Under the pieces are notes generated by a model. That model saw nothing but the letters and a program-made list of their open reading frames with translations. It made no database searches and was not told where the DNA came from. This document shows positions 935-13,246 of a stretch of 13,246 bases of DNA, one piece after another. The position numbers and the translations under genes are program-made. Location: IMG/VR virus record IMGVR_UViG_2541047805_000002. One strand, given 5' to 3'. Source of the DNA: a virus (taxonomy: Duplodnaviria; Heunggongvirae; Uroviricota; Caudoviricetes). How positions within the stretch are numbered: the stretch's first letter is position 1; every line of letters begins with the position of its first letter.

Positions 935-2620
935 GTGAATATAAACGTCGCCGAATTGTTAAATGGGAATTACATTCTGTTATTATTTGTGGTCCTCGCG
1001 CTTGGGCTATGTCTCGGAAAGTTACGACTTGGTTCGATCCAACTGGGTAATTCCATTGGCGTTTTAGTCGTATCGCTGTTATTAGGCCAACAACATTTCA
1101 GCATTAACACCGATGCGCTTAATCTTGGCTTTATGCTGTTTATTTTCTGCGTCGGGGTCGAAGCCGGACCGAACTTTTTTTCCATTTTTTTTCGCGATGG
1201 GAAAAATTACCTAATGTTAGCACTGGTGATGGTTGGCAGTGCGCTGGTGATCGCCTTAGGGTTAGGTAAGCTGTTTGGCTGGGATATTGGCCTGACGGCC
1301 GGTATGTTAGCAGGCTCTATGACGTCGACACCGGTTCTGGTCGGTGCTGGCGATACACTGCGTCATTCCGGCATGGAAAGCAGGCAGCTCTCACTGGCAC
1401 TGGATAATCTGAGCCTCGGGTATGCCTTAACCTATTTAATCGGTCTGGTGAGTTTGATTGTTGGTGCGCGTTACTTGCCGAAATTGCAGCATCAGGACTT
1501 ACAGACCAGCGCCCAGCAAATCGCCCGCGAACGTGGCCTGGACACTGATGCCAACCGTAAGGTTTATTTACCGGTGATCCGCGCCTATCGCGTCGGCCCG
1601 GAACTGGTGGCCTGGACCGACGGCAAAAATCTGCGTGAACTGGGTATTTATCGACAAACCGGCTGCTACATTGAACGTATTCGACGTAACGGGATTCTGG
1701 CAAATCCAGACGGTGATGCCGTGCTACAAATGGGCGATGAAATAGCGTTGGTAGGCTATCCCGACGCCCATGCCCGACTCGATCCCAGCTTCCGTAACGG
1801 TAAAGAAGTTTTCGATCGTGACCTTCTCGACATGCGTATCGTCACTGAAGAAGTGGTCGTTAAAAACCATAACGCTGTAGGTAAACGTCTCGCACAACTG
1901 AAGTTGACCGATCACGGTTGCTTCCTTAACCGCGTCATTCGTAGCCAGATTGAGATGCCGATAGATGACAACGTCGTGCTTAACAAAGGTGACGTTTTAC
2001 AAGTCAGCGGCGATGCCCGCCGCGTAAAAACCATCGCCGATCGCATCGGCTTTATCTCGATTCACAGCCAGGTCACTGACCTGCTGGCATTCTGCGCCTT
2101 CTTTGTTATTGGGCTGATGATCGGGATGATCACCTTCCAGTTCAGCACATTCAGTTTCGGCATGGGGAACGCTGCCGGGTTGTTATTCGCCGGAATTATG
2201 CTGGGCTTTATGCGTGCTAACCACCCGACCTTCGGTTACATTCCGCAGGGTGCATTAAGCATGGTGAAAGAGTTCGGCTTGATGGTGTTTATGGCAGGCG
2301 TTGGTCTGAGCGCCGGTAGCGGTATTAATAACGGCCTGGGCGCGATTGGCGGTCAGATGTTGATTGCCGGATTGATTGTCAGTCTGGTGCCCGTGGTTAT
2401 CTGTTTCTTGTTCGGTGCTTATGTATTGCGAATGAACCGCGCGCTGTTGTTCGGCGCAATGATGGGCGCACGTACCTGCGCACCGGCAATGGAGATCATC
2501 AGTGATACAGCTCGCAGTAACATCCCGGCGCTGGGCTATGCGGGCACCTATGCAATCGCCAACGTCCTGCTGACGCTGGCAGGGACAATCATCGTCATGG
2601 TATGGCCAGGATTAGGATAA
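935..2620 (+). CDS. ybjL: Putative transporter YbjL (AAE-family permease, 561 aa)
   Basis: 561-aa ORF with GTG start at 935; hydrophobic N- and C-terminal membrane domains flank a soluble central region; matches E. coli YbjL by recall in sequence and length. Confidence 0.92.
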
Positions 2621-2732
2621 AACTGAAGTTGCCCTGAAAATGAAATTTTTTTGCACAACCGCAGAACTTTTCCGCAGGGCATCAGTCTTAATTAGTGCCA
2701 CTGCTTTTCTTTGATGTCCCCATTTTGTGGAG

Positions 2733-2776
2733 CCCATCAACCCCGCCATTTCGGTTCAAGGTTGATGGGTTTTTTG
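2733..2776 (+). terminator. Rho-independent terminator, probably terminating ybjL transcription
   Basis: Perfect 10-bp inverted repeat CCCATCAACC (2733-2742) / GGTTGATGGG (2760-2769) followed directly by TTTTTT (2770-2775). It is functional only on the + strand; the minus strand has no T-run after the stem. Confidence 0.6.
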
Positions 2777-2855
2777 TTGCCTGAAATTTAAGATGTTTAA
2801 AATCATGATGTTAGAAGCACTGTTTTTTAACGATGGCGACAAAATGGCGGCAGCG

Positions 2856-3074
2856 TCAAAGAGAGAGCGCCACCTGTCCTGATTTCATTGGATGCGGCTG
2901 AACTGGATTCGACTCTTTTGGTGTTGCAATCGAACGAACAAAAGTTTCATGGGTAACAAAAGTATGGCTGCAGTTAATGTTCTGGCACTGGTTATAACGC
3001 TCTTTGGTCAATGAAGATACCTGAAAACTGCTGCGAGTATGGGCGGCACTTCCACACAGTGGGCAAATCATCAT
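2856..3074 (-). CDS. ogr: Ogr/Delta-family zinc-finger late transcription activator (72 aa)
   Basis: Cys4 motif C-x2-C-x22-C-x4-C (CPLCGSAAH...CQNINC) and overall similarity to P2 Ogr by recall. I chose the ATG at 3074-3072 because GGGGAGA lies about 9 nt upstream; the track's GTG at 3107 would add 11 residues. Sits immediately downstream of D, as in P2. Confidence 0.85.
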   Translation of the reverse strand: MMICPLCGSAAHTRSSFQVSSLTKERYNQCQNINCSHTFVTHETFVRSIATPKESNPVQPHPMKSGQVALSL

Positions 3075-3104
3075 TTTTCGAGTTCTCCCCATTTTTGCTA
3101 AATT

Positions 3105-3140
3105 CACAACAATGATACCGTATTATTCCATTTTGCAAAC
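3105..3140 (-). promoter_or_regulatory. Candidate sigma70 promoter for ogr
   Basis: On the minus strand, TTGCAA (-35-like), a roughly 15-nt spacer, then TATCAT (-10-like), placed about 30-60 nt upstream of the ogr ATG. The spacer is short, so this is weak. Confidence 0.25.
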
Positions 3141-3164
3141 TTAAAAGTTCTCCATTGCGAAGAA

Positions 3165-4265
3165 TCATTCCATTTCGAAATCATCAATCCTCACTTCAAG
3201 CTCCAGACTGGTCGTAAAACCGTTATCCGGGCTGACGGTATGTGTCAGGGTGGTAATGGTCCATTCCGCATCATCTATCGGCTGTTTAAAACCACTGACC
3301 TTCACAGACATTTCCGTGTAGAGATCTGCCCGCCCTTCTGCCAGTTGTAGAGAAAATGACGCAACGCCGCGTTGCAGGCGTTCCCACTGCATTTTCGCCG
3401 CTCGTTCGGCGTTGCTCCGGTTGGCATAGGTGCGATTAAGTACCAGCACGTTTTCATCCGTACCCACCAGGTAATCGCCCTGCTTCGCTTCTGGCTCTTT
3501 CTTCTGCTTCTTAGTTCTGCGCTTACGCTTCACCGTGGTGCTTTCTTTCTTCGCAGGTTCGCGGGTATGCAACCAGCTGGCAATTACGCCCGTGTAGGCT
3601 CCGCGATCTGCCAGGGTAAATCGGTGACTGTCGCCGTCCTTGCGTGTGATAGTGATCACTGGCAGAGGTTTACCAGTGGCGCTTTTGCCCTGCCCCTGCC
3701 GGATGAATAACAGATTGCCATTTTTCACCGACGCGATGGCACCGTACTGTCTCGCCAGCCGCATCAGAAAACTGCCGTCACTCTCATTAGTCTGGTCTAT
3801 ATGCTCCACGGGCTTATCCGACAGGTCTTTACCCAGTGCCATCTTCAGCTTGTGCCGCGCGGCAATTTCCTGCACCACTTCCCCGACGGTGGTCTTATGC
3901 CACGATTTTTCACGGCGGGTATTCAGCGTTTCCCGAAAATCAGCACTTCGCGCCCGGATAGTCAGGCGGTCCGGTGCGCCAGTGTGTTCAATCTCGTCCA
4001 CTGTGAATGCCCCTTTCGGGAAAAGCGGCTGCCCCTTCCAGCCCAGCGCCAGCGTAATGACCGCACCACGGCGCGGCAGCACGATTTTTCCGTCAGCGTC
4101 ATCCAGCTCCAGATCAAGCTGGTCCGCTTCAAAGCCCCGGTTATCCGTCAGCGTCAAACTCATCAGGCGGTTATCCAGCACAGTGGTGATATCCCTGCCC
4201 TCAATACTGATGCTGAATGCGGGAGTTTTGTTGCCTTTGTTAAGCAGTTCAGAGCTGAAATTCAC
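3165..4265 (-). CDS. Phage late control gene D protein (tail protein gpD, 366 aa)
   Basis: Translation resembles P2 gpD-family tail proteins and the gene is in the U-D-ogr position. The only start that gives translational coupling is GTG at 4265-4263, which overlaps the U stop (GTGA). Confidence 0.85.
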   Translation of the reverse strand: MNFSSELLNKGNKTPAFSISIEGRDITTVLDNRLMSLTLTDNRGFEADQLDLELDDADGKIVLPRRGAVITLALGWKGQPLFPKGAFTVDEIEHTGAPDRLTIRARSADFRETLNTRREKSWHKTTVGEVVQEIAARHKLKMALGKDLSDKPVEHIDQTNESDGSFLMRLARQYGAIASVKNGNLLFIRQGQGKSATGKPLPVITITRKDGDSHRFTLADRGAYTGVIASWLHTREPAKKESTTVKRKRRTKKQKKEPEAKQGDYLVGTDENVLVLNRTYANRSNAERAAKMQWERLQRGVASFSLQLAEGRADLYTEMSVKVSGFKQPIDDAEWTITTLTHTVSPDNGFTTSLELEVRIDDFEME

Positions 4266-4747
4266 GACAGCAGCCCTCCCACCGTTTTACTGATATCGCT
4301 TAAGGCAGACGTTGCCGTGTCCTGCAGATTATTCAGTTGCGCACTGAGATCACCGAACATATCGGACAGGGATTCATCCACTCGTTTGAGCGACAGGGTG
4401 AACTCAATCCGGCGCGGCATACCGTCGCGGAAAAACTCCGTTTTAGTCTGATTCAGTCCCTCAATCACATACATACCGTAAATCGTGCCGCTGCCTTCAA
4501 TCAGGGGCCATGCTTTCCCCTGTTCTGCCATCTGCTCCAGTGCCAGCAACGACAGCCTGCCGCCTGTTATCTCCGGCATAAGAACACCGGAAAGCGTCAG
4601 CATGTCGTTTTCCGGTCCCAGAAACTGCGTGGACGGACGTCGGTTTACCCGACTGTTTGCCGCATGTCGCCAGCTGCGTTGATACTGCAGTTCCTGATAC
4701 GGCACGGTGCGCAGCATAAACACGTACAATCCCAGCACCATCATCAT
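4262..4747 (-). CDS. Phage tail protein U (gpU, 161 aa)
   Basis: Translation (MMMVLGLYVFMLRTVPYQELQYQRSWRH...) is similar to P2 gpU by recall; the ATG at 4747-4745 overlaps the stop of the T fragment (ATGA). Confidence 0.87.
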   Translation of the reverse strand: MMMVLGLYVFMLRTVPYQELQYQRSWRHAANSRVNRRPSTQFLGPENDMLTLSGVLMPEITGGRLSLLALEQMAEQGKAWPLIEGSGTIYGMYVIEGLNQTKTEFFRDGMPRRIEFTLSLKRVDESLSDMFGDLSAQLNNLQDTATSALSDISKTVGGLLS

Positions 4748-5685
4748 GCGTCGTATCCCCCCTGATCGCTGTAGTTACTCCTGGCTTTTGCCTTCAGCCT
4801 GCGTTCACGTTCATCAAGCTGGCGTGCCACCTCCCGAGCAATATCCTGCGCACTTTGTCCTGGCTGCGTCTGAATGATGATCTGCGTCGGTACCTCAATC
4901 CGTTGAACGAGCGGCACAGTGGCTGCGCGACTCACAATTGCTTCTCCACCTTTCGCGGGGAGTGCCAAAGGGTGCAACGGTGGAAGCTCTGCTGGCGCGG
5001 CAGCAACGCCCATCATTCCGGCAACAACGGCAGCCAGTGCAGCTGTATTTCTCCGGCTGGTCACATTTGCCGGGCCGTTAACAATTTCCGGCCCGTTTTC
5101 ACCGACGATGCCAAACTGCCCGCGCGGGATATACCCGCCGCTGTCATACATCCCCGCAAAGCCATACCCCCATGACGGAAAACCACCCGATGGCATCATC
5201 ACTTTACCGTCTGCATTCACCGTCGCAGGTTGCTGACGCGTCACGCTTTCCGGCAGTTTTGCCTTTGCGGCCTCTTTACTGACAATGCCAAGTTTCTCCA
5301 GCAACCAGGAAACGCCGGATTTCAGGGAGTCCAGCGGATGCATGACCATATTCAGCCCTTCCGCCAGTGCCTCTCCGAATCGCCGCCCCATTGCCGCTGC
5401 ACTCTGCAGTTCGGCAGAGGTCGACTTAACGGGCGTCAGCAGATCAGTAAACCAGCCCCACAGCGCCTGTACTTTGTCGCCAATCCACTGGAACACGGGC
5501 TTAAGCGGTTCGAACGCTGCACTGACGGGACCTGCCGCCGCTTTGAATCCTTCCACCACGCCACCAAGAAATGCGGTGATGGGTTGCCAGTATTTCCAGA
5601 CAACCAGCGCCACGCCCGCCAGTGCAGTAACCACAAGACCTATCGGACTGAGCAGAGCACCTAACAGACCAGATAGGAAGCACCA
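4744..5685 (-). pseudogene. Tail tape-measure protein gpT, C-terminal fragment only (about 300 of roughly 800 codons)
   Basis: The T frame is open from the stop at 5700-5698 down to 4744 and encodes a hydrophobic segment ([27 protein letters not shown]) followed by a Gly/Ala-rich tape-measure-like C-terminus. There is no N-terminal two-thirds and no native start; upstream sequence switches abruptly to terminase coding sequence. Confidence 0.8.
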
Positions 5686-6352
5686 TCGGATCGCCTTTCA
5701 GCTCCACCTCCACTTCTTTGGCGAAGTCGATGATGTACTGCTTAAAGACGTGGGCCTGTGCCTTACTGGCGGAAAGGAAAATCTGGTTACGCCCGGTTAG
5801 CAGGGCGTCAATCAGGGCTTCACGGGCAAAATAGAAGGTCGCGCCGATCTGGCGTGACTTCAGCAGGTTGCGGATGCGGTTGGTTTTTCCGGCTTCCCAC
5901 CAGTGGCGCTGGTAGTTGAACATGGAGGAATGGAAGATTTCTTCCAGCTTCTCAATCTGTTCATCGGTGAAAACGTTCTTTTCCGGCTGACGGCGCGGGC
6001 CTTTGTTGCGGTTGGCGACGTTAGGGTTTAAGTCGGCTTCGTTGCCGCCATTGTTAAACTTGCCGATCCGCGCATGGCGCTCCGACTGGCGCGCCAGCAG
6101 GTCAATCTCTTTGAAATCTTTCCCTTCTTTGTGCTCCTTCATAATGAGCTGGCAGTAGCGTGCGGCGGTGGTGAGCTGCATCTGATCCAGCGGCCCATAG
6201 TCACCCCACTTGTCGCGTTTTTTCCAGCTGTGAACGGTTGCAACTTTCTCGCCCAGCATTTCAGCAATGCGGGCTACGCGGTATCCCTGAAAGTACAGCA
6301 GCATGGCCTGCCGACGGGGATCGAGATCTGCGGGTGTCAGTGTGGTGTTCAT
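5678..6352 (-). pseudogene. Terminase large (ATPase) subunit gpP, N-terminal fragment only (about 225 of roughly 590 codons)
   Basis: ATG at 6352-6350. Residues 1-225 align with P2 gpP by recall (…[12 protein letters not shown]…HSWKKRD…[21 protein letters not shown]…GDPMVL). After about 5678 the frame runs through out-of-frame T-derived sequence to a stop at 5501 (track ORF 5501..6352). Confidence 0.83.
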
Positions 6353-6396
6353 GGCACAAACCTACAGCCTTGAATGAAGGCTTTCCCCGCCTGCGG

Positions 6397-6418
6397 TTTG
6401 TGTGGTTGTCGGTACAAA
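6397..6418. promoter_or_regulatory. Candidate Ogr/Delta activator-binding dyad of the late promoter for the O-N-M-L operon
   Basis: TTTGT-N12-ACAAA dyad with TGT at 6399-6401 and ACA at 6414-6416. Its centre is about 87 bp upstream of the O start codon, so roughly -55 to -60 if the transcript starts near the weak -10-like CATAAG at 6454-6459. P2 late promoters are known to carry a TGT-N12-ACA element at about -55. Confidence 0.5.
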
Positions 6419-6494
6419 TACCGCGCATTGTTTCACTGCCCCCATCACCGCAACCATAAGGCTCCAGTAAGTTTTTTCTAACGGAGCACGGCTC

Positions 6495-7328
6495 ATGACA
6501 GTGAAAGCAAAGCGTTTTCGCATCGGGGTGGAAGGTGCCACCACCGACGGACGCGAAATCCAGCGTGAATGGCTGGAACAGATGGCAGCCAGCTACAACC
6601 CGGCGGTGTATACCGCGCTGATTAACCTTGAGCACATCAAGTCTTATCTGCCGGACAGCACCTTTAACCGCTACGGCAAGGTGACGGCGCTGTTTGCTGA
6701 AGAAATCACGGAAGGTCCGCTGGCAGGCAAGATGGCGCTGTATGCCGACGTTGAGCCAACGGAGTCCCTGGTGGAACTGGTGAAAAAAGGCCAGAAATTA
6801 TTCACCTCTATGGAAGTCAGCCCGAAGTTCGCTGATACGGGCAAAGCCTACCTGGTCGGCCTGGCTGCCACTGATGACCCTGCCAGTCTGGGTACGGAAA
6901 TGCTGACATTCAGCGCCAGTGCAGCCCATAACCCGCTGGCAAACCGCAAGCAGAATCCTGCCAATCTCTTTACCGCTGCAGAGGAAACGGTGATCGAACT
7001 GGAAGAAATCCAGGACGACAAACCGTCCCTGTTTGCCCGCGTCACGGCGCTGTTTACCAAAAAAGAGCAGTCCGATGACGCCCGGTTCTCTGATGTGCAT
7101 AAGGCCGTGGAGCTGGTCGCCACTGAGCAGCAAAACCTGAGCGCACGCACCGAAAAATCCCTGTCTGAGCAGGAAGAACGCCTGTCTGAGCTGGAGACTG
7201 CCCTGCAGGCACAGCAAACCGCCTTTAACGAACTGGTGGACAAGCTGAGTCATGAAGACAGCCGCCAGGACTACCGCCAGCGTGCAACAGGCGGTAACGC
7301 CCCCGCTGACACTCTGACCAATTGCTGA
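6495..7328 (+). CDS. Capsid scaffolding protein gpO (277 aa)
   Basis: Clear similarity to P2 gpO by recall (RIGVEGATTDGR…INLEH…YLVGLAATDDPASLGTE…ATGG…TNC); GGAG about 10 nt upstream of the ATG; divergent from P as in P2. Confidence 0.9.
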   Translation: MTVKAKRFRIGVEGATTDGREIQREWLEQMAASYNPAVYTALINLEHIKSYLPDSTFNRYGKVTALFAEEITEGPLAGKMALYADVEPTESLVELVKKGQKLFTSMEVSPKFADTGKAYLVGLAATDDPASLGTEMLTFSASAAHNPLANRKQNPANLFTAAEETVIELEEIQDDKPSLFARVTALFTKKEQSDDARFSDVHKAVELVATEQQNLSARTEKSLSEQEERLSELETALQAQQTAFNELVDKLSHEDSRQDYRQRATGGNAPADTLTNC

Positions 7329-7344
7329 TGGAGCACAAAACCCG

Positions 7345-8403
7345 ATGAAGAAGAATACCCGCTTTGCTTTTAACGCTTACCTGCAGCAGCTGGCGCGTCT
7401 GAACGGTGTGGCAGTTGAAGAACTGTCCAGCAAGTTCACCGTGGAGCCGTCTGTACAGCAGACGCTGGAAGACCAGATCCAGCAGTCCGCCGCTTTCCTG
7501 ACGCTGATTAACGTCACGCCAGTGACTGAGCAGTCCGGTCAGCTGCTGGGGTTGGGTGTTGGCAGCACCATTGCCGGAACTACTGATACCACCGCGAAAG
7601 AGCGTGAACCTGTCGATCCGACGCTGATGGTCGATGTGGAATACAAATGCGAGCAGACCAACTTTGACACGGTGCTGACCTACGCGAAGCTGGACCTGTG
7701 GGCGAAATTTCAGGATTTCCAGGTGCGTATCCGTGACGCCATCGTGAAACGTCAGGCACTGGACCGCATCATGATCGGCTTTAACGGCGTGAAGCGTGCG
7801 AAAACCTCCAACCGTAGTGAAAACCCGCTGCTGCAGGATGTGAACAAAGGCTGGCTGCAGAAAATCCGTGAGGATGCACCGGATCACGTCATGGGCAGCA
7901 CCACCACAGGCGGTGAAACCACACCGGGCGCGGTGAAAGTCGGTAAAGGTGGCGAATATGCCAACCTGGACGCCGTGGTGATGGATGCCGTCAATGAGCT
8001 TATCGACGTGGTCTACCAGGACGATGACGATCTGGTGGTGATTTGCGGTCGTGAACTGTTGTCTGACAAGTATTTCCCACTGGTCAACAAAGAGCAGGAA
8101 AACAGTGAAAAACTCGCTGCCGATATGATCATCAGTCAGAAACGCATGGGTGGCCTGCAGGCCGTGCGTGCGCCGTTCTTCCCGCCGAATGCACTGCTGA
8201 TCACCCGTCTGGATAACTTGTCCATCTACTGGCAGGAAGACACCCGCCGCCGTTCAGTTATCGACAACCCGAAACGTGACCGGATTGAAAACTTTGAATC
8301 CGTTAATGAAGCCTATGTGGTTGAGGACTACCGCTGCGCCGCACTGGTGGAAAACATCCAGATTGGTGATTTCAGCGCCGCCGCAGCAGAAGCCGGAGCG
8401 TAA
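7345..8403 (+). CDS. Major capsid protein gpN (352 aa)
   Basis: 352-aa ORF called as P2 gpN-family major capsid protein from its size and position immediately after O in the conserved O-N-M-L order. Confidence 0.9.
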   Translation: MKKNTRFAFNAYLQQLARLNGVAVEELSSKFTVEPSVQQTLEDQIQQSAAFLTLINVTPVTEQSGQLLGLGVGSTIAGTTDTTAKEREPVDPTLMVDVEYKCEQTNFDTVLTYAKLDLWAKFQDFQVRIRDAIVKRQALDRIMIGFNGVKRAKTSNRSENPLLQDVNKGWLQKIREDAPDHVMGSTTTGGETTPGAVKVGKGGEYANLDAVVMDAVNELIDVVYQDDDDLVVICGRELLSDKYFPLVNKEQENSEKLAADMIISQKRMGGLQAVRAPFFPPNALLITRLDNLSIYWQEDTRRRSVIDNPKRDRIENFESVNEAYVVEDYRCAALVENIQIGDFSAAAAEAGA

Positions 8404-8406
8404 ACC

Positions 8407-9057
8407 ATGAGCCTGAGTCCCGCACGGCAGCATCGCCTGCGCGTTCAGGCTGAACAGGCCGCCCGTGAGGGCGGCAGTGTTCGCCACGCGTCGGGCTATG
8501 ACCTGATGCTGCTGCAGCTGGCGGAAGACCGCCGCCGTCTCAAGGGCGTTCAGTCCACGGTGAAAAAAGCGGAAATAAAGGTGGAGCTGCTGCCGAAATA
8601 TGCCGCCTGGGCGGAGGGCGTCCTGGCTGCCGGAGGCGCTCAACAGGATGACGTGCTGATGTACGTGATGCTGTGGCGCATTGATGCCGGAGATTATGCC
8701 GGGGCGCTGGAGATCGGGCGTCATGCCCTGCGTCATGGCTGGGTGATGCCTCTGGGTAACCGCAACGTGCAGACCGTGCTGGCAGAGGAAATGGCAGATG
8801 CAGCGCAGAGCGCAATGCTTGCCGCTACCGGCTTTGATGCCGATCTGTTGCTGCAGACGCTGGAGCTGACAGACGGTCTGGATATGCCGGACCAGTCACG
8901 GGCGCGTCTGCATAAAGCGATTGGCGCTGTCCTGAGTGAAAGCAATCCGGCTTCCGCCCTTAATCATCTCAACCATGCGTTACAGCTCGATCCCCGCTGT
9001 GGCGTGAAAAAAGACAAACAGCAGCTGGAGCGCAGACTGCGCAATGACAGCCGCTGA
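8407..9057 (+). CDS. Terminase small / endonuclease subunit gpM (216 aa)
   Basis: Similarity to P2 gpM by recall (…QDDVLMYVMLWRIDAGDYAGALEI…LELTDGLDMPD…); position N-M-L. Confidence 0.87.
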   Translation: MSLSPARQHRLRVQAEQAAREGGSVRHASGYDLMLLQLAEDRRRLKGVQSTVKKAEIKVELLPKYAAWAEGVLAAGGAQQDDVLMYVMLWRIDAGDYAGALEIGRHALRHGWVMPLGNRNVQTVLAEEMADAAQSAMLAATGFDADLLLQTLELTDGLDMPDQSRARLHKAIGAVLSESNPASALNHLNHALQLDPRCGVKKDKQQLERRLRNDSR

Positions 9058-9152
9058 CAGAACGTGCCCCCGCGCACGGGCGGCACGGGGTGGCGAAAGG
9101 CATAGCCACATCAAAATCCCGTCCACCGCCCTCTATTTCAGGAGAAAGCAGC

Positions 9153-9617
9153 ATGAAGTTTGTTGCGCCAGAACAGGCACCGGAACAGGCGGAAATCATC
9201 AGAAATACGCCGTTCTGGCCTGATGTGGACCTGTCGGAGTTTCGCAGCGTGATGCGCACTGACGGCACGGTGACGCAGCCGCGTTTAAAGCAGGTTGCCC
9301 TGTCGGCAATTTCGGAGGTCAACGCAGAGCTGTATGAGTTTCGCAGACGTCAGCAGATGCTGGGATATGCCTCGCTGGCAGAGGTTCCGGCGGAACAGCT
9401 GGACGGCAAAAGTGAGCGCATTCAGCACTATTTCAACGCGGTTTACTGCTGGGCACGCGCCATGCTCAACGAACGATACCAGGACTATGACGCCACGGCA
9501 TCCGGTGTGAAGCGGGGCGAAGAACTGGCAGAAGCCAGCGGTGATTTGTGGCGTGACGCCCGCTGGGCCATCAGCCGGGTACAGGATGCGCCGCACTGCA
9601 CAGTGGAGCTTATCTGA
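9153..9617 (+). CDS. Head completion/stabilization protein gpL (154 aa)
   Basis: ATG at 9153 with GGAGA 7 nt upstream, preferred over the track start at 9090. C-terminus ends …TVELI, as I recall for P2 gpL. Its stop overlaps the X start (ATGA). Confidence 0.83.
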   Translation: MKFVAPEQAPEQAEIIRNTPFWPDVDLSEFRSVMRTDGTVTQPRLKQVALSAISEVNAELYEFRRRQQMLGYASLAEVPAEQLDGKSERIQHYFNAVYCWARAMLNERYQDYDATASGVKRGEELAEASGDLWRDARWAISRVQDAPHCTVELI

Positions 9618-9820
9618 TGAAAGTGCGTGCGCATCAGTATGACACGGTGGACGCGCTTTGCTGGCGTCATTACGGGCGCACGCAGGGTGTCACGGAGCAG
9701 GTACTGAAGGCAAATCCGGGGCTTGCCGAATACGGCCCCTTTTTACCTCACGGGCTGCAGGTGGAGCTGCCGGACATTCCGACCACCACCACCGTGCAGA
9801 CCGTCCAGCTATGGGACTGA
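9617..9820 (+). CDS. Tail protein X (gpX, 67 aa)
   Basis: 67-aa ORF similar to P2 gpX by recall (…DTVDALCWRHYGRT…ANPGLAE…LPHG…VELPD…); translationally coupled to L. Confidence 0.85.
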   Translation: MKVRAHQYDTVDALCWRHYGRTQGVTEQVLKANPGLAEYGPFLPHGLQVELPDIPTTTTVQTVQLWD

Positions 9821-9823
9821 ATT

Positions 9824-10039
9824 ATGACGCTTGAGCGAATCAGCGCCTTTATCACGTATTGCATCGCCGTCGTGCTGGCCTGGCTGGGCGATTTGTCCAT
9901 CAAGGATGCCTCAACGCTGGGCGGCCTGATGATTGGTGTGCTGATGCTGGCTATCAACTGGTACTACAAACACAAAGCCTACCAGCTTCTGCGCGACGGG
10001 CAGATCTCGCGGGAGGACTATGAATCCATCAATCGTTAA
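9824..10039 (+). CDS. Putative class II holin, pinholin-like (71 aa)
   Basis: Two predicted transmembrane segments (ISAFITYCIAVVLAWLG and TLGGLMIGVLMLAINWYY) followed by a charged C-terminal tail; sits between X and the endolysin where the P2 holin Y lies; architecture resembles the phage 21 S21 pinholin. Confidence 0.6.
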   Translation: MTLERISAFITYCIAVVLAWLGDLSIKDASTLGGLMIGVLMLAINWYYKHKAYQLLRDGQISREDYESINR

Positions 10040-10373
10040 ACGCTGCCTTGTCGGGGCCGTGCTGGCTATTGCTGCCACGCTGCCGGGTTTTCAGCAGCTT
10101 CACACCTCCGTGGAGGGGCTGAAACTGATTGCCGATTACGAAGGTTGTCGTCTGCAGCCGTATCAGTGCAGCGCGGGTGTCTGGACCGACGGCATTGGTA
10201 ATACATCTGGCGTCATTCCAGGCAAAACCATTACGGAACGACAGGCAGCGGAAGGACTGATCTCCAACGTGCTGCGTGTGGAGCGGTCACTGGAAAGGTG
10301 TGTGAAGCAACAGCCACCGCAACCGGAGGCCCGGTATGACGCTTTATATCGGGATGAACAATACCAGCGGTAA
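10020..10373 (+). pseudogene. SAR-type endolysin (T4-lysozyme/P1 Lyz-like), truncated after about 100 residues
   Basis: N-terminal signal-anchor-like segment (KRCLVGAVLAIAATLPGF) followed by the lysozyme catalytic-region motif EGCRLQPYQCSAGVWTDGIGNT, which closely matches P1 Lyz by recall. The C-terminal lobe is missing; the ORF ends 37 nt into gene W. Confidence 0.75.
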
Positions 10374-10695
10374 AGCCATTACTGATATTGACCATCTGCG
10401 TCAGTCGGTGCGGGACATTCTACTGACACCGCAGGGTTGCCGCATTGCCCGTCGTGAATATGGTTCCCTGCTGTCGACACTGATAGACCAGCCACAAAAT
10501 CCGGCATTACGCCTGCAGGTCATGTCGGCAGTGTATGTGGCGCTGAGTCGCTGGGAGCCACGGCTGACGCTGGATTCCATCACCATTAAAAGCAATTTTG
10601 ACGGTTCAATGGTGGTGGGGCTGACCGGGCGGCGTAATAACGGTGTGCCTGTTTCCCTTTCCGTATCAACAGGAGCAGAGAATGGCAGTGATTGA
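10336..10695 (+). CDS. Baseplate assembly protein W (gpW, 119 aa)
   Basis: Similarity to P2 gpW along its length by recall (…YGSLL…IDQPQ…PAL…WEPR…FDG…LTG…); GGAGG 6 nt upstream of the ATG. Confidence 0.88.
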   Translation: MTLYIGMNNTSGKAITDIDHLRQSVRDILLTPQGCRIARREYGSLLSTLIDQPQNPALRLQVMSAVYVALSRWEPRLTLDSITIKSNFDGSMVVGLTGRRNNGVPVSLSVSTGAENGSD

Positions 10696-11590
10696 CCTTT
10701 CGCAGTTGCCTGCGCCGCAGATTGTCGATGTGCCGGACTTTGAGACGCTGCTTGCCGAACGCAAGGCCGAATTTGTTGTGCTTCATCCGAAAGATGAGCA
10801 GGAAGCCGTGATCCGCACGCTGGAACTGGAATCTGAACCCGTCACCAAATTGCTGCAGGAGAACGCTTACCGTGAGTTGCTTCTGCGCCAGCGCATTAAC
10901 GAAGCCGCGCAGGCTGTGATGGTGGCTTACGCGATGGGCGGCGATCTTGACCAGCTCGCTGCCAACTACAACGTGAAACGCCTGACGGTGACGCCTGCTG
11001 ATAATGACGCTGTGCCACCCGTTGCGGCTGTGATGGAAAGCGATGAAGCGTTACGCCTGCGTGTGCCTGCAGCCTTTGAAGGGCTTTCTGTTGCGGGGCC
11101 AACTGCCGCTTATGAATTTCATGCCCGAAGCGCCGACGGTCGGGTGGCGGATGCCAGTGCAACCAGTCCGGCACCTGCAGAGGTGGTACTGACTGTCCTG
11201 AGTCGTGAAGGCGACGGAACAGCAGAAAAAGACTTGCTGGATGTGGTGGAGAAAGCCCTGAACAGTGAGAACGTCCGCCCGGTGGCTGACCGTCTGACGG
11301 TTCGCAGCGCAGAAATCATCCCGTACCGTGTGGAAGCTACCATTTTTCTTTATCCGGGACCGGAAGCAGAGCCGGTAATGGCAGCGGCAAAAGTCAGCCT
11401 GCAGAGGTACATCGCCAGTCAGACGCGGCTCGGTCGGGATATTCGCCGTAGTGCTATTTTTGCCGCGCTGCATGTTGAGGGTGTTCAACGTGTGGAGCTG
11501 GCTTCACCGCTGGCTGATGTGGTCCTGAACAAAACGCAGGCGGCATCATGTACGCAGTGGAGCGTGACCAACGGGGGAACGGATGAATAG
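10682..11590 (+). CDS. Baseplate assembly protein J (gpJ, 302 aa)
   Basis: ATG at 10682 with AGGAG upstream, preferred over the track start at 10643. Called as P2 gpJ-family baseplate protein from its length and its W-J-I-H position. Confidence 0.87.
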   Translation: MAVIDLSQLPAPQIVDVPDFETLLAERKAEFVVLHPKDEQEAVIRTLELESEPVTKLLQENAYRELLLRQRINEAAQAVMVAYAMGGDLDQLAANYNVKRLTVTPADNDAVPPVAAVMESDEALRLRVPAAFEGLSVAGPTAAYEFHARSADGRVADASATSPAPAEVVLTVLSREGDGTAEKDLLDVVEKALNSENVRPVADRLTVRSAEIIPYRVEATIFLYPGPEAEPVMAAAKVSLQRYIASQTRLGRDIRRSAIFAALHVEGVQRVELASPLADVVLNKTQAASCTQWSVTNGGTDE

Positions 11591-12188
11591 TCTGCTGCCA
11601 CCGGGTTCAACGCCACTGGAGCGCCGACTGGCGCAAACCTGTAGCGGGATTTCTGATCTGCAGGTGTCACTGCGTGACTTGTGGAATCCGGCAACCTGTC
11701 CGGTCAGTTTCCTGCCTTATCTCGCCTGGGCGTTCTCTGTGGATCGCTGGGACGAGGGCTGGACAGAAAGCGTCAAACGCCAGGTAGTGAAGGATGCTTT
11801 TTATATTCATCAGCACAAAGGAACCACCAGTGCCGTACGGCGGGTGGTGGAGCCGTTCGGCTTCCTGATCCGCATTATTGAGTGGTGGCAGACCGGAGAA
11901 ACACCGGGCACGTTTCGTCTGGACATTGGTGTGCAGGACCAGGGCATCACTGAAGATACCTATCTGGAACTTGAGCGACTGATAAGCGATGCCAAACCAT
12001 GTAGCCGTCACATGATCGGCATGTCCATCAATCTGCAGACCAGCGGCCCGCATTGGGTGGGAGCCGCCAGTTATCTTGGCGAAGAAATCACGATCTATCC
12101 GTATATCAACGAAACAATTATTTCCGGCGGCACCGCGCATGAAGGCGGGGCGGTCCATGTTATTGACACAATGAGAGTGAATCCATGA
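11583..12188 (+). CDS. Baseplate/tail protein I (gpI, 201 aa)
   Basis: Assigned from its position between J and H and from 8-nt overlap with the J stop; consistent with P2 gpI-family proteins. Confidence 0.83.
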   Translation: MNSLLPPGSTPLERRLAQTCSGISDLQVSLRDLWNPATCPVSFLPYLAWAFSVDRWDEGWTESVKRQVVKDAFYIHQHKGTTSAVRRVVEPFGFLIRIIEWWQTGETPGTFRLDIGVQDQGITEDTYLELERLISDAKPCSRHMIGMSINLQTSGPHWVGAASYLGEEITIYPYINETIISGGTAHEGGAVHVIDTMRVNP

Positions 12189-13246
12189 GCACAAAATTTT
12201 ATACCCTGCTGACGGATATTGGCGCGGCGAAACTTGCCAGCGCCGCCGCGCTCGGTGTGCCGCTAAAAATTACCCATATGGCGGTGGGCGATGGCGGCGG
12301 AGCATTGCCGACGCCGGACGCAAAGCAGACTGCACTGGTAAATGAGAAACGCCGGGCTGCGCTGAATATGCTCTATATCGACCCGCAGAACAGCAGCCAG
12401 ATTATTGCTGAACAGGTGATCCCTGAAAATGAGGGTGGTTGGTGGATACGTGAAGTGGGTCTGTTTGATGAGTCCGGGGCATTGATTGCCGTAGGCAACT
12501 GCCCGGAAAGCTATAAGCCGCAACTGGCTGAAGGCAGCGGGCGCACCCAGACCGTGCGCATGGTGTTGATTACCAGCAGCACGGACAATATCACCCTGAA
12601 AATCGACCCTGCCGTCGTGCTGGCAACCCGCAAGTATGTGGATGACAAGGTACTGGAGCTGAAGGTGTTCGTGGATGATAAGATGGCAAAACATCTTGCC
12701 GCACCGGACCCGCATTCACAGTATGCACCCAAAGAAAGCCCGACATTGACCGGAACACCCAAAGCGCCAACGCCAGCGGAGGGGAATAACACCACGCAGA
12801 TTGCGACCACCGCGTTTGTTCAGGCGGCACTGATGGCCCTTATTAATGGTGCGCCAGCCACACTGGATACGCTGAAAGAAATTGCCGCTGCCATTAATAA
12901 TGACCCGAAATTCAGTACCACTATTAACAATGCGCTGGCACTGAAAGCGCCGCTGTCAAGTCCGGCACTCACCGGAACGCCAACAGCCCCCACTGCCGCA
13001 CAGTCGGTTAACAATACACAGATTGCCACTACGGCTTTTGTGAAATCGGCGATTGCGGCAATGGTGGGTTCTGCACCTGCGGCACTGGATACACTGAACG
13101 AACTGGCGGCGGCGCTGGGGAATGACCCGAACTTTGCCACGACAATGCTTAATGCACTGGCAGGTAAACAACCGCTGGACAATACGCTGACTAATTTGAG
13201 TGGAAAGGATGTAGCTGGTCTTCTCGCATACCTTGGTTTGGGAGAA
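12185..13246 (+). CDS. Tail fibre protein H (gpH), 5' partial: 354 codons, runs off the window end
   Basis: Absent from the ORF track because there is no stop in the window. ATG at 12185 overlaps the I stop (ATGA). The N-terminal region (MSTKFYTLLTDIGAAKLASAAALGVPLKITHMAVGDGGGALP…) resembles P2 gpH by recall, followed by fibre-type repeats. Confidence 0.85.
   Translation, partial: MSTKFYTLLTDIGAAKLASAAALGVPLKITHMAVGDGGGALPTPDAKQTALVNEKRRAALNMLYIDPQNSSQIIAEQVIPENEGGWWIREVGLFDESGALIAVGNCPESYKPQLAEGSGRTQTVRMVLITSSTDNITLKIDPAVVLATRKYVDDKVLELKVFVDDKMAKHLAAPDPHSQYAPKESPTLTGTPKAPTPAEGNNTTQIATTAFVQAALMALINGAPATLDTLKEIAAAINNDPKFSTTINNALALKAPLSSPALTGTPTAPTAAQSVNNTQIATTAFVKSAIAAMVGSAPAALDTLNELAAALGNDPNFATTMLNALAGKQPLDNTLTNLSGKDVAGLLAYLGLGE
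12737..13180 (+). repeat. Two tandem divergent repeats of about 222 nt (74 aa) inside tail-fibre gene H
   Basis: Protein repeat units start at H residues 185 and 259: SPTLTGTPKAPTPAEGNNTTQIATTAFVQAALMALINGAPATLDTLKEIAAAINNDPKFSTTINNALALKAPLS versus SPALTGTPTAPTAAQSVNNTQIATTAFVKSAIAAMVGSAPAALDTLNELAAALGNDPNFATTMLNALAGKQPLD. Confidence 0.7.

Follow-up and report, generated by a model that had tools for sequence, protein, structure and literature searches.

The boundary between host and phage DNA at position 2778 of the window (by which we mean the whole 13,246-nucleotide stretch analysed here, IMG/VR record IMGVR_UViG_2541047805_000002) is, as judged by alignment, the ogr-proximal attachment junction of a P2-like phage that integrates into rybB, a small RNA (sRNA) gene in the interval between ybjL and rcdA. 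We consider it very likely that positions 2765-2778 are the product of site-specific integration into the 3' end of rybB, this end being attR by the convention used for P2 and 4LV2017. The original prediction had described a P2-like prophage abutting ybjL and had expected the attachment junction somewhere within 2621-2855. Both statements hold: the junction was found at 2765-2778, and the first gene on the phage side encodes an Ogr_Delta protein, followed by D, U and a truncated T. The rybB attachment site is already known; the feature is real but ordinary.

The host side of the junction

Positions 1-2778 of the window are 99.96% identical to Escherichia coli K-12 MG1655, and grxA (1-258, + strand), ybjM (288-665, - strand) and ybjL (935-2620, + strand) are in K-12 gene order, as stated in the original prediction. 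The gene upstream of the site is annotated as ybjL in K-12, H2 and UMNK88 alike and encodes a protein of the aspartate:alanine antiporter family (Pfam Asp-Al_Ex and TrkA_C). It was also correctly anticipated that K-12 has no prophage at this locus: there, rcdA comes directly after ybjL in the gene order, with no phage genes between the two.

Downstream of ybjL lies an intact rybB sRNA gene (2697-2778, + strand, the 5' GCC included). The Rfam model for RybB (RF00110) matches positions 2700-2778 on the + strand over its entire length (model positions 1-79 of 79), scoring 105.3 bits where the gathering score is 40, and RybB is the sole Rfam family found in the whole window; the 5' seed of the sRNA is GCCACUGCUUUUC. 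The gene ends in a terminator on the + strand, with a stem at 2733-2742/2760-2769 and a U-tract at 2770-2778, and the hairpin together with the U-tract folds with -25.2 kcal/mol (z = -3.3). A + strand terminator at 2733-2776 had been noted before, with the suggestion that it may be host sequence or have been rebuilt by the phage arm. It is the terminator of rybB, which had not been recognized, so that the target is a gene and not a nameless terminator between genes. The stem is host DNA; only its last five bases and the U-tract lie in the core shared with the phage. Upstream of the gene there are promoter-like motifs of the sigma-E type (2664-2690, + strand: GAACTT at 2664-2669, a 15-nt spacer and GTCTTA at 2685-2690), which we take to be a putative sigma-E promoter from the known regulation of rybB. 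As a class, RybB sRNAs are transcribed in a sigma-E-dependent manner and repress outer-membrane protein mRNAs with the help of Hfq. A target of the tRNA type was also considered and rejected: ARAGORN gave no tRNA or tmRNA in the window.

The attachment core

We aligned, in register, the K-12 attB, the attP of the free phage KP12, the window, and the prophage junctions of UMNK88 and H2. Collinearity with the empty K-12 site stops at 2778, weak similarity continues to 2790 and phage homology begins at the core, so the interval 2621-2855 is not fully collinear with the uninterrupted host region; full collinearity was the outcome that the original prediction had named as speaking against integration at this place.

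The core, ATGGGTTTTTTGTT (2765-2778, no strand assigned), consists of the final 14 nt of rybB; found a single time in the window, it is identical in attB, in attP and in both prophage junctions. It is composed of the five terminal bases of the RybB terminator stem and the U-tract, so that rybB is regenerated unchanged. To the left of the core the window has attB sequence (rybB), and to the right it has attP sequence (GCCTGAAATTTA and onwards, into ogr). The window holds the ogr-side end only, and the int-side end was read in the near-identical relatives UMNK88 and H2, not in the source scaffold. In these two, attP sequence (...AACCCGTTTACATAA) is on the left of a repeat of the core and attB sequence (ATCTAAAACTTATCTACTACC, the end of rcdA) is on the right, beside rcdA; the int-side junction of UMNK88 reads phage-ATGGGTTTTTTGTT-ATCTAAAACTTA-rcdA, and that of H2 is alike. 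In the free Klebsiella phage genome KP12 the attP is contiguous, int-...CATAA-ATGGGTTTTTTGTT-GTCTGAAATTTA...-ogr. The junction pattern (B-O-P / P'-O-B') is that of conservative site-specific recombination, and the crossover must lie inside the 14-nt core.

The core can be extended to 26 nt, ATGGGTTTTTTGTTGCCTGAAATTTA (2765-2790, no strand assigned), of which the last 12 nt are phage-derived in the window. Compared with the K-12-type attB, this attP-type sequence is identical at 22-23 of 26 positions (22 of 26 for the window), and four of the last 12 nt differ. On the phage side, the U-tract is preceded by a modestly stable hairpin (AACCCGUUU/AAAUGGGUU; -9 kcal/mol, z = -2.0), which plausibly serves as the terminator of int.

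We propose that the phage, temperate and P2-like, was inserted at the 3' end of rybB by its tyrosine integrase. Its attP carries a copy of the last 14 nt of rybB, and in most enterobacteria it matches the next 12 nt too. Strand exchange within the identical segment would keep rybB intact and place the phage arm behind it (the IHF-like site, the arm repeats and ogr), and at the other end the int-terminator hairpin of the phage would be joined to the same U-tract, followed by rcdA. The int-side end in the source genome would then be expected to show int, ...CGTTTACATAA-ATGGGTTTTTTGTT-ATCTAAAACTTATCTACTACC and rcdA.

The phage arm and ogr

Three elements of an attachment arm are recognizable between the core and ogr. 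An IHF-consensus-like site, AATCATGATGTTA (2801-2813, + strand; 12 of 13 positions match WATCAANNNNTTR), placed as is the annotated IHF site in the P2 attP, lies between the core and two tandem arm-type repeats, TGGCGACA (2834-2841) and TGGCGGCA (2845-2852), both on the + strand, with a consensus of TGGCGRCA and a spacing of 11 bp. The TGGCGACA/TGGCGGCA pair is also found on the int side of the KP12 attP, about 95 bp from the core (a 20-nt repeat with 95% identity), and on the int side of H2 and UMNK88 as well. By analogy with P2, the repeats at 2834-2852 are candidates for the integrase-binding sites of the ogr-side arm; we likewise infer binding of IHF at 2801-2813, and the exact cut positions within the core are to be understood in the same way. 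A variant of the int side was seen in UMNK88 (locus L028, 1700-3316), where a small gene of unannotated function (1859-2191) separates the arm-type repeats from the integrase gene; of the int 3' end that is usually found next to the core, it leaves a remnant of about 45 nt, and it gives the integrase a different C-terminal tail (338 versus 350 a.a.).

The att-proximal phage gene is ogr, encoding the late-gene activator (2856-3074, - strand; 72 a.a., ATG start; Pfam Ogr_Delta, E-value 5e-22). Its stop codon (TGA, 2856-2858, - strand) is 235 bp after the stop codon of ybjL, exactly the distance given in the original prediction. The gene is most likely 2856-3074, as annotated in H2 and UMNK88, and a GTG open reading frame extending to 3107 is probably not the ogr gene. 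There is a sigma-70-like promoter match upstream of ogr (TTTGCA-16-TATCAT; 3112-3139, - strand), in the position of the P2 ogr promoter. A terminator scan of 2560-3200 found none, and hence none between ogr and rybB, whereas P2 has a terminator after ogr; the loop limit of the scan excludes the RybB hairpin, which the scan misses too.

One functional consequence can be imagined, namely that ogr or late transcription reads antisense into rybB in lysogens, with the state of the prophage tuning the sigma-E/RybB envelope-stress circuit. We regard this as highly unlikely. If it were true, selection, not accident, would explain why decayed prophages keep their ogr-proximal end beside an sRNA gene; two such cases are the window (rybB) and the ogr-D' remnant of K-12 (cyaR).

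Occupancy and host range of the site

A survey of other genomes, as had been suggested, found the contiguous junction ybjL-rybB-ogr-D in 1,114 out of 5,426 complete E. coli genomes (20.5%) and the uninterrupted arrangement ybjL-rybB-rcdA in 4,294 (79.1%). The junction region has a 97.8% match in E. coli B derivatives.

The site is not confined to E. coli. In a scan covering one genome per species, the 26-nt string ATGGGTTTTTTGTTGYCTGAAATTTA was found at 17 loci, which belong to Enterobacter, Citrobacter, Atlantibacter and several Escherichia species. In 13 of them the end of RybB coincides with the 26-nt core, and four of the 17 are int-side junctions. As many of these loci are unoccupied, the 12 nt directly after rybB (GCCTGAAATTTA) are native host sequence in Citrobacter, Enterobacter, Atlantibacter and other Escherichia, where the match between attP and attB then spans 26 nt. 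K-12-type E. coli has ATCTAAAACTTA after rybB instead of GCCTGAAATTTA, and thus offers a partly mismatched attB. With the Klebsiella phages 4LV2017 and KP12, the int and ogr arms share 94-97% identity, and the 4LV2017 record annotates its att as ATGGGTTTTTTGTTGCCTG. We also came across a 724-bp contig (L014) in the assembly of Actinoallomurus acaciae with an E. coli-type rybB (RybB, 105 bits) and the end of rcdA; this contig is almost certainly an enterobacterial contamination of that assembly.

The integrase and a secondary site

H2 and UMNK88 each encode an integrase of the tyrosine recombinase type, with the Pfam domains Int_N and Phage_integrase. The two integrases share 98% identity with each other and 35% with P2 Int, and it is on these two proteins, not on the integrase of the source genome itself, that the comparison rests. 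The 27-nt P2 core, AAAAAATAAGCCCGTGTAAGGGAGATT, has no match with three or fewer mismatches anywhere in the window, in agreement with the original prediction, in which no P2-type core had been recognized.

The same phage type is found at a different place in E. coli Z226-7, where it splits a gene encoding a FAD-binding protein (L003, 2990-3030; L027, 6520-6600). The Z226-7 junctions share AATGG only, and the left half of the host site (TCAAGGTTAATGG) matches the left half of the rybB site (TCAAGGTTGATGG) at 13 of 14 positions. This insertion looks like a true secondary site, and hints that the integrase may read the bases just left of the 14-nt core.

Rearrangement of the prophage

The window is 100% identical to scaffold KE700470.1 (assembly GCA_000458495.1), in which a gap of 1,930 N starts at the window end, 13246; the gap (L040, 13229-15158) falls in the tail-fibre/invertase region, which is variable between relatives. 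The nearest intact relative that we found is the UMNK88 prophage at the same locus, with 99.75-100% identity to the phage DNA of the window. Intact relatives of this phage have control genes of the 186/Fels-2 type (CI, CII and Fil). Late genes recognized by Pfam in the window are those for Ogr_Delta, Phage_GPD, GpU, the terminase gpP and GPW, and their order is as in H2 and UMNK88.

After ogr come gene D, for the tail/baseplate hub (3165-4265, - strand; Pfam Phage_GPD), the tail gene U (4262-4747, - strand; Pfam Phage_P2_GpU) and a 3' fragment of the tape-measure gene T (4744-5675, - strand), which is collinear with T of UMNK88 and H2 until it is cut at 5675. Here, at the first rearrangement junction (5674-5675, no strand assigned), T' is joined to the inverted 5' part of the terminase gene P with a 2-bp microhomology. 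The inverted block (5675-10320, + strand) corresponds to UMNK88 L028 17091-21738 at 99.9% identity and contains P' (5675-6352, - strand), followed on the + strand by O, N, M, L, X, the holin gene and a truncated lysozyme gene K' (P' and K' being supported by Pfam). At the second junction (10320-10321, no strand assigned), a 2.6-kb deletion has taken out the missing part of K together with lysA/B/C, R, S and V. The remainder of the window (10336-13246, + strand) holds W, J, I and the 5' part of the tail-fibre gene H, and is 100% identical to UMNK88 L028 24347-27273. Compared with UMNK88, a block reaching from inside P to inside the sheath gene is thus inverted; the inversion is accompanied by a deletion of 86 bp of P, and a 3.7-kb deletion has taken the remaining sheath sequence along with the tube gene, E/E' and the 5' part of T. 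A third junction (sheath'/P') is at L040 16551 of the source scaffold. We rejected a mosaic of two prophages, as the single prophage of UMNK88 matches all three window segments at 99.75-100%.

Neither of the first two junctions has an identical counterpart in the 5,426 complete E. coli genomes, and a 36-nt probe for the first is absent from the one-genome-per-species collection. In the window copy, P, T, the sheath gene and the lysis genes are not intact, and by its gene content it is predicted to be unable to form particles or to move. As the prophage cannot make particles, integration predates the decay; we place it in an ancestor of the source strain, and because the prophage is scrambled, integration in the source strain and inheritance are not distinguishable. 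The attachment junction itself is untouched by the inversion and the deletions; the junctions at 5675 and 10320 are far from it.

Several observations concern other copies. In L030 (GCA_052765945.1, CM127648.1), a prophage at the same site has also decayed: several tail genes are missing and V-W is inverted with respect to the adjoining genes, with ogr-D-U still beside ybjL, so prophage decay at rybB is not unique to the source genome. A P2-type lysozyme segment of NZ_CP026085.1 (3123416-3123537) is 100% identical to the window; this 4.83-Mb genome is labelled as E. coli DH5alpha, and the segment, unexpected in a K-12 derivative, suggests that the strain is mislabelled. Cargo of the defence type occupies fixed positions outside the window and differs among members: UMNK88 (L028, 13156-14937) and the source scaffold (L040, 18618-20354) have a GmrSD-type endonuclease, H2 (L004, 1940-5046 and 12149-13480) has PIN and HEPN proteins and a KAP NTPase, and Z226-7 (L027, 7741-9488) has DUF4276 and an AAA ATPase. 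This variable cargo fits the published picture of hotspot #29 (see below).

Alternative explanations

The original prediction had raised the possibility of a secondary or lineage-specific site; on this reading, a P2-type integrase would have acted here while preferring another place. P2 Int is known to act at several sites that match its core in part, the K-12-type attB matches attP at only 22-23 of 26 positions of the extended core, and the Z226-7 insertion is a genuine secondary site of the same phage type. This reading is nevertheless very improbable, being already contradicted by the integrase, only 35% identical to P2 Int, and by the absence of the P2 core, from which it follows that rybB is not a secondary P2 site. 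Moreover, the attP has a perfect copy of the rybB 3' end, 20.5% of the complete E. coli genomes (1114/5426) are occupied at exactly the same position, the same position is used in Klebsiella and Citrobacter, and the literature lists rybB as a dedicated site. Going by the sequences compared, rybB is the primary site of a distinct integrase, used in several genera.

It could also be argued that the boundary is not an attachment junction at all, the phage DNA having arrived through a larger rearrangement or through homologous recombination of the flanks. The inversion and three deletions mark the region as prone to rearrangement, and the entire locus could have been passed on, by inheritance or by transfer, together with its flanks. 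We give this very little credence, as the boundary agrees to the base with the attB/attP identity and is the same in more than 1100 genomes with intact prophages, the internal junctions are far away and leave it untouched, and acquisition along with the flanks would still mean an attachment junction made earlier. A doubt of a different kind touches the internal structure only, namely that the inversion and deletions are assembly artefacts and the prophage is intact: the source is a gapped scaffold with the run of 1930 N right after the window, no complete E. coli genome has junction 1 or 2, and P2-like prophages are known to confuse assemblers (PMC3032704). We find this unlikely, though less so than the two preceding alternatives. 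Junctions 1 and 2 lie within contigs, each at a unique, non-repeated position and with a 2-bp microhomology, and the three junctions give one coherent inversion-plus-deletion structure. Junctions 1 and 2 are also present in a Logan assembly of run SRR958310, which was built independently (the part of its contig covered here stops before the third junction); this argues against an assembler artefact. Site-specific integration into the 3' end of rybB, followed by decay of the prophage, is the reading that we retain.

Comparison with known systems

We found no literature that pairs P2-like phages with ybjL; the site is indexed under rybB. In the paper on the E. coli W genome, the prophages Rybb*W, Rybb*B and Rybb*Cr of E. 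coli W, B and Crooks, all of the P2 type, are listed with the rybB ncRNA as their insertion site, and cyaR is given as the site of P2-type elements including the K-12 ogr-D' remnant (PMC3032704, Table 2). In a pan-genome survey, defence hotspot #29 contains only Felsduovirus prophages integrated within rybB, in 109 genomes (PMC10121019). The island Kpn38RybB is described as lying precisely within the RybB gene (PMC4048246), and NC-MV of strain NC101 is between ybjL and rcdA (PMC12803456). In the Phollow study, the prophage of E. coli HS between rcdA and ogr was deleted and attB was rebuilt, and the cured strain was the recipient in assays of phage transmission and lysogenic conversion (10.1101/2024.06.12.598711); according to the literature, phages at the rybB site are thus functional, excising and re-lysogenising.

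As an annotation point, rybB, located in the ybjL-rcdA interval, is a standard site in heavy use by one integrase type of P2-like phages, and prophages at rybB are already known as carriers of defence systems. What is added here is the base-level 14-nt core, the 26-nt extended core, the P2-like layout of the arm, one secondary site and one example of decay; no question is made testable that was not testable before.

The Rybb*, Felsduovirus hotspot #29, NC-MV and HS prophages share with the window the rybB site between ybjL and rcdA and the structural genes of the P2 type; the window differs from them in being a degraded copy, and cargo genes vary between members. The Klebsiella phages 4LV2017 (Elveevirus) and KP12 and the island Kpn38RybB have the same core, but in a different host genus, and the Klebsiella attB shares at least 19 nt with attP (ATGGGTTTTTTGTTGCCTG) compared with 14 perfect nt in K-12-type E. 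coli.

Elements that integrate at the 3' ends of tRNA and tmRNA genes, such as the P4-type ones at leuX and ssrA (PMC3032704, Table 2), follow the same principle: their attP has a copy of the 3' end of a gene for a small structured RNA, so that integration restores the gene and leaves a short direct repeat. Here, in contrast, an Hfq-dependent regulatory sRNA is targeted, most of the shared segment is the terminator U-tract, and the integrase gene comes to lie at the opposite end of the prophage from the regenerated RNA gene.

The closest architectural parallel is the attP of P2 itself. The P2 record gives the order ogr, terminator, Int P-arm site, IHF site, 27-nt core, Cox sites and P'-arm site, the last lying within the 3' end of int, and each P2 arm has two TGTGGACA-like repeats 11 bp apart. 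As the original prediction had assumed from P2, ogr is the gene nearest to att. Both systems have ogr, tandem arm repeats, an IHF site, a core, an excisionase-binding side and repeats at the int 3' end; both have a target beside or in an sRNA gene (P2 locI adjoins cyaR) and an integrase of the same tyrosine-recombinase family. They differ in the core sequence, in the arm repeat (TGTGGACA in P2 versus TGGCGRCA here) and in immunity, which is C/Cox in P2 and 186-like CI/CII/Fil in the intact relatives here.
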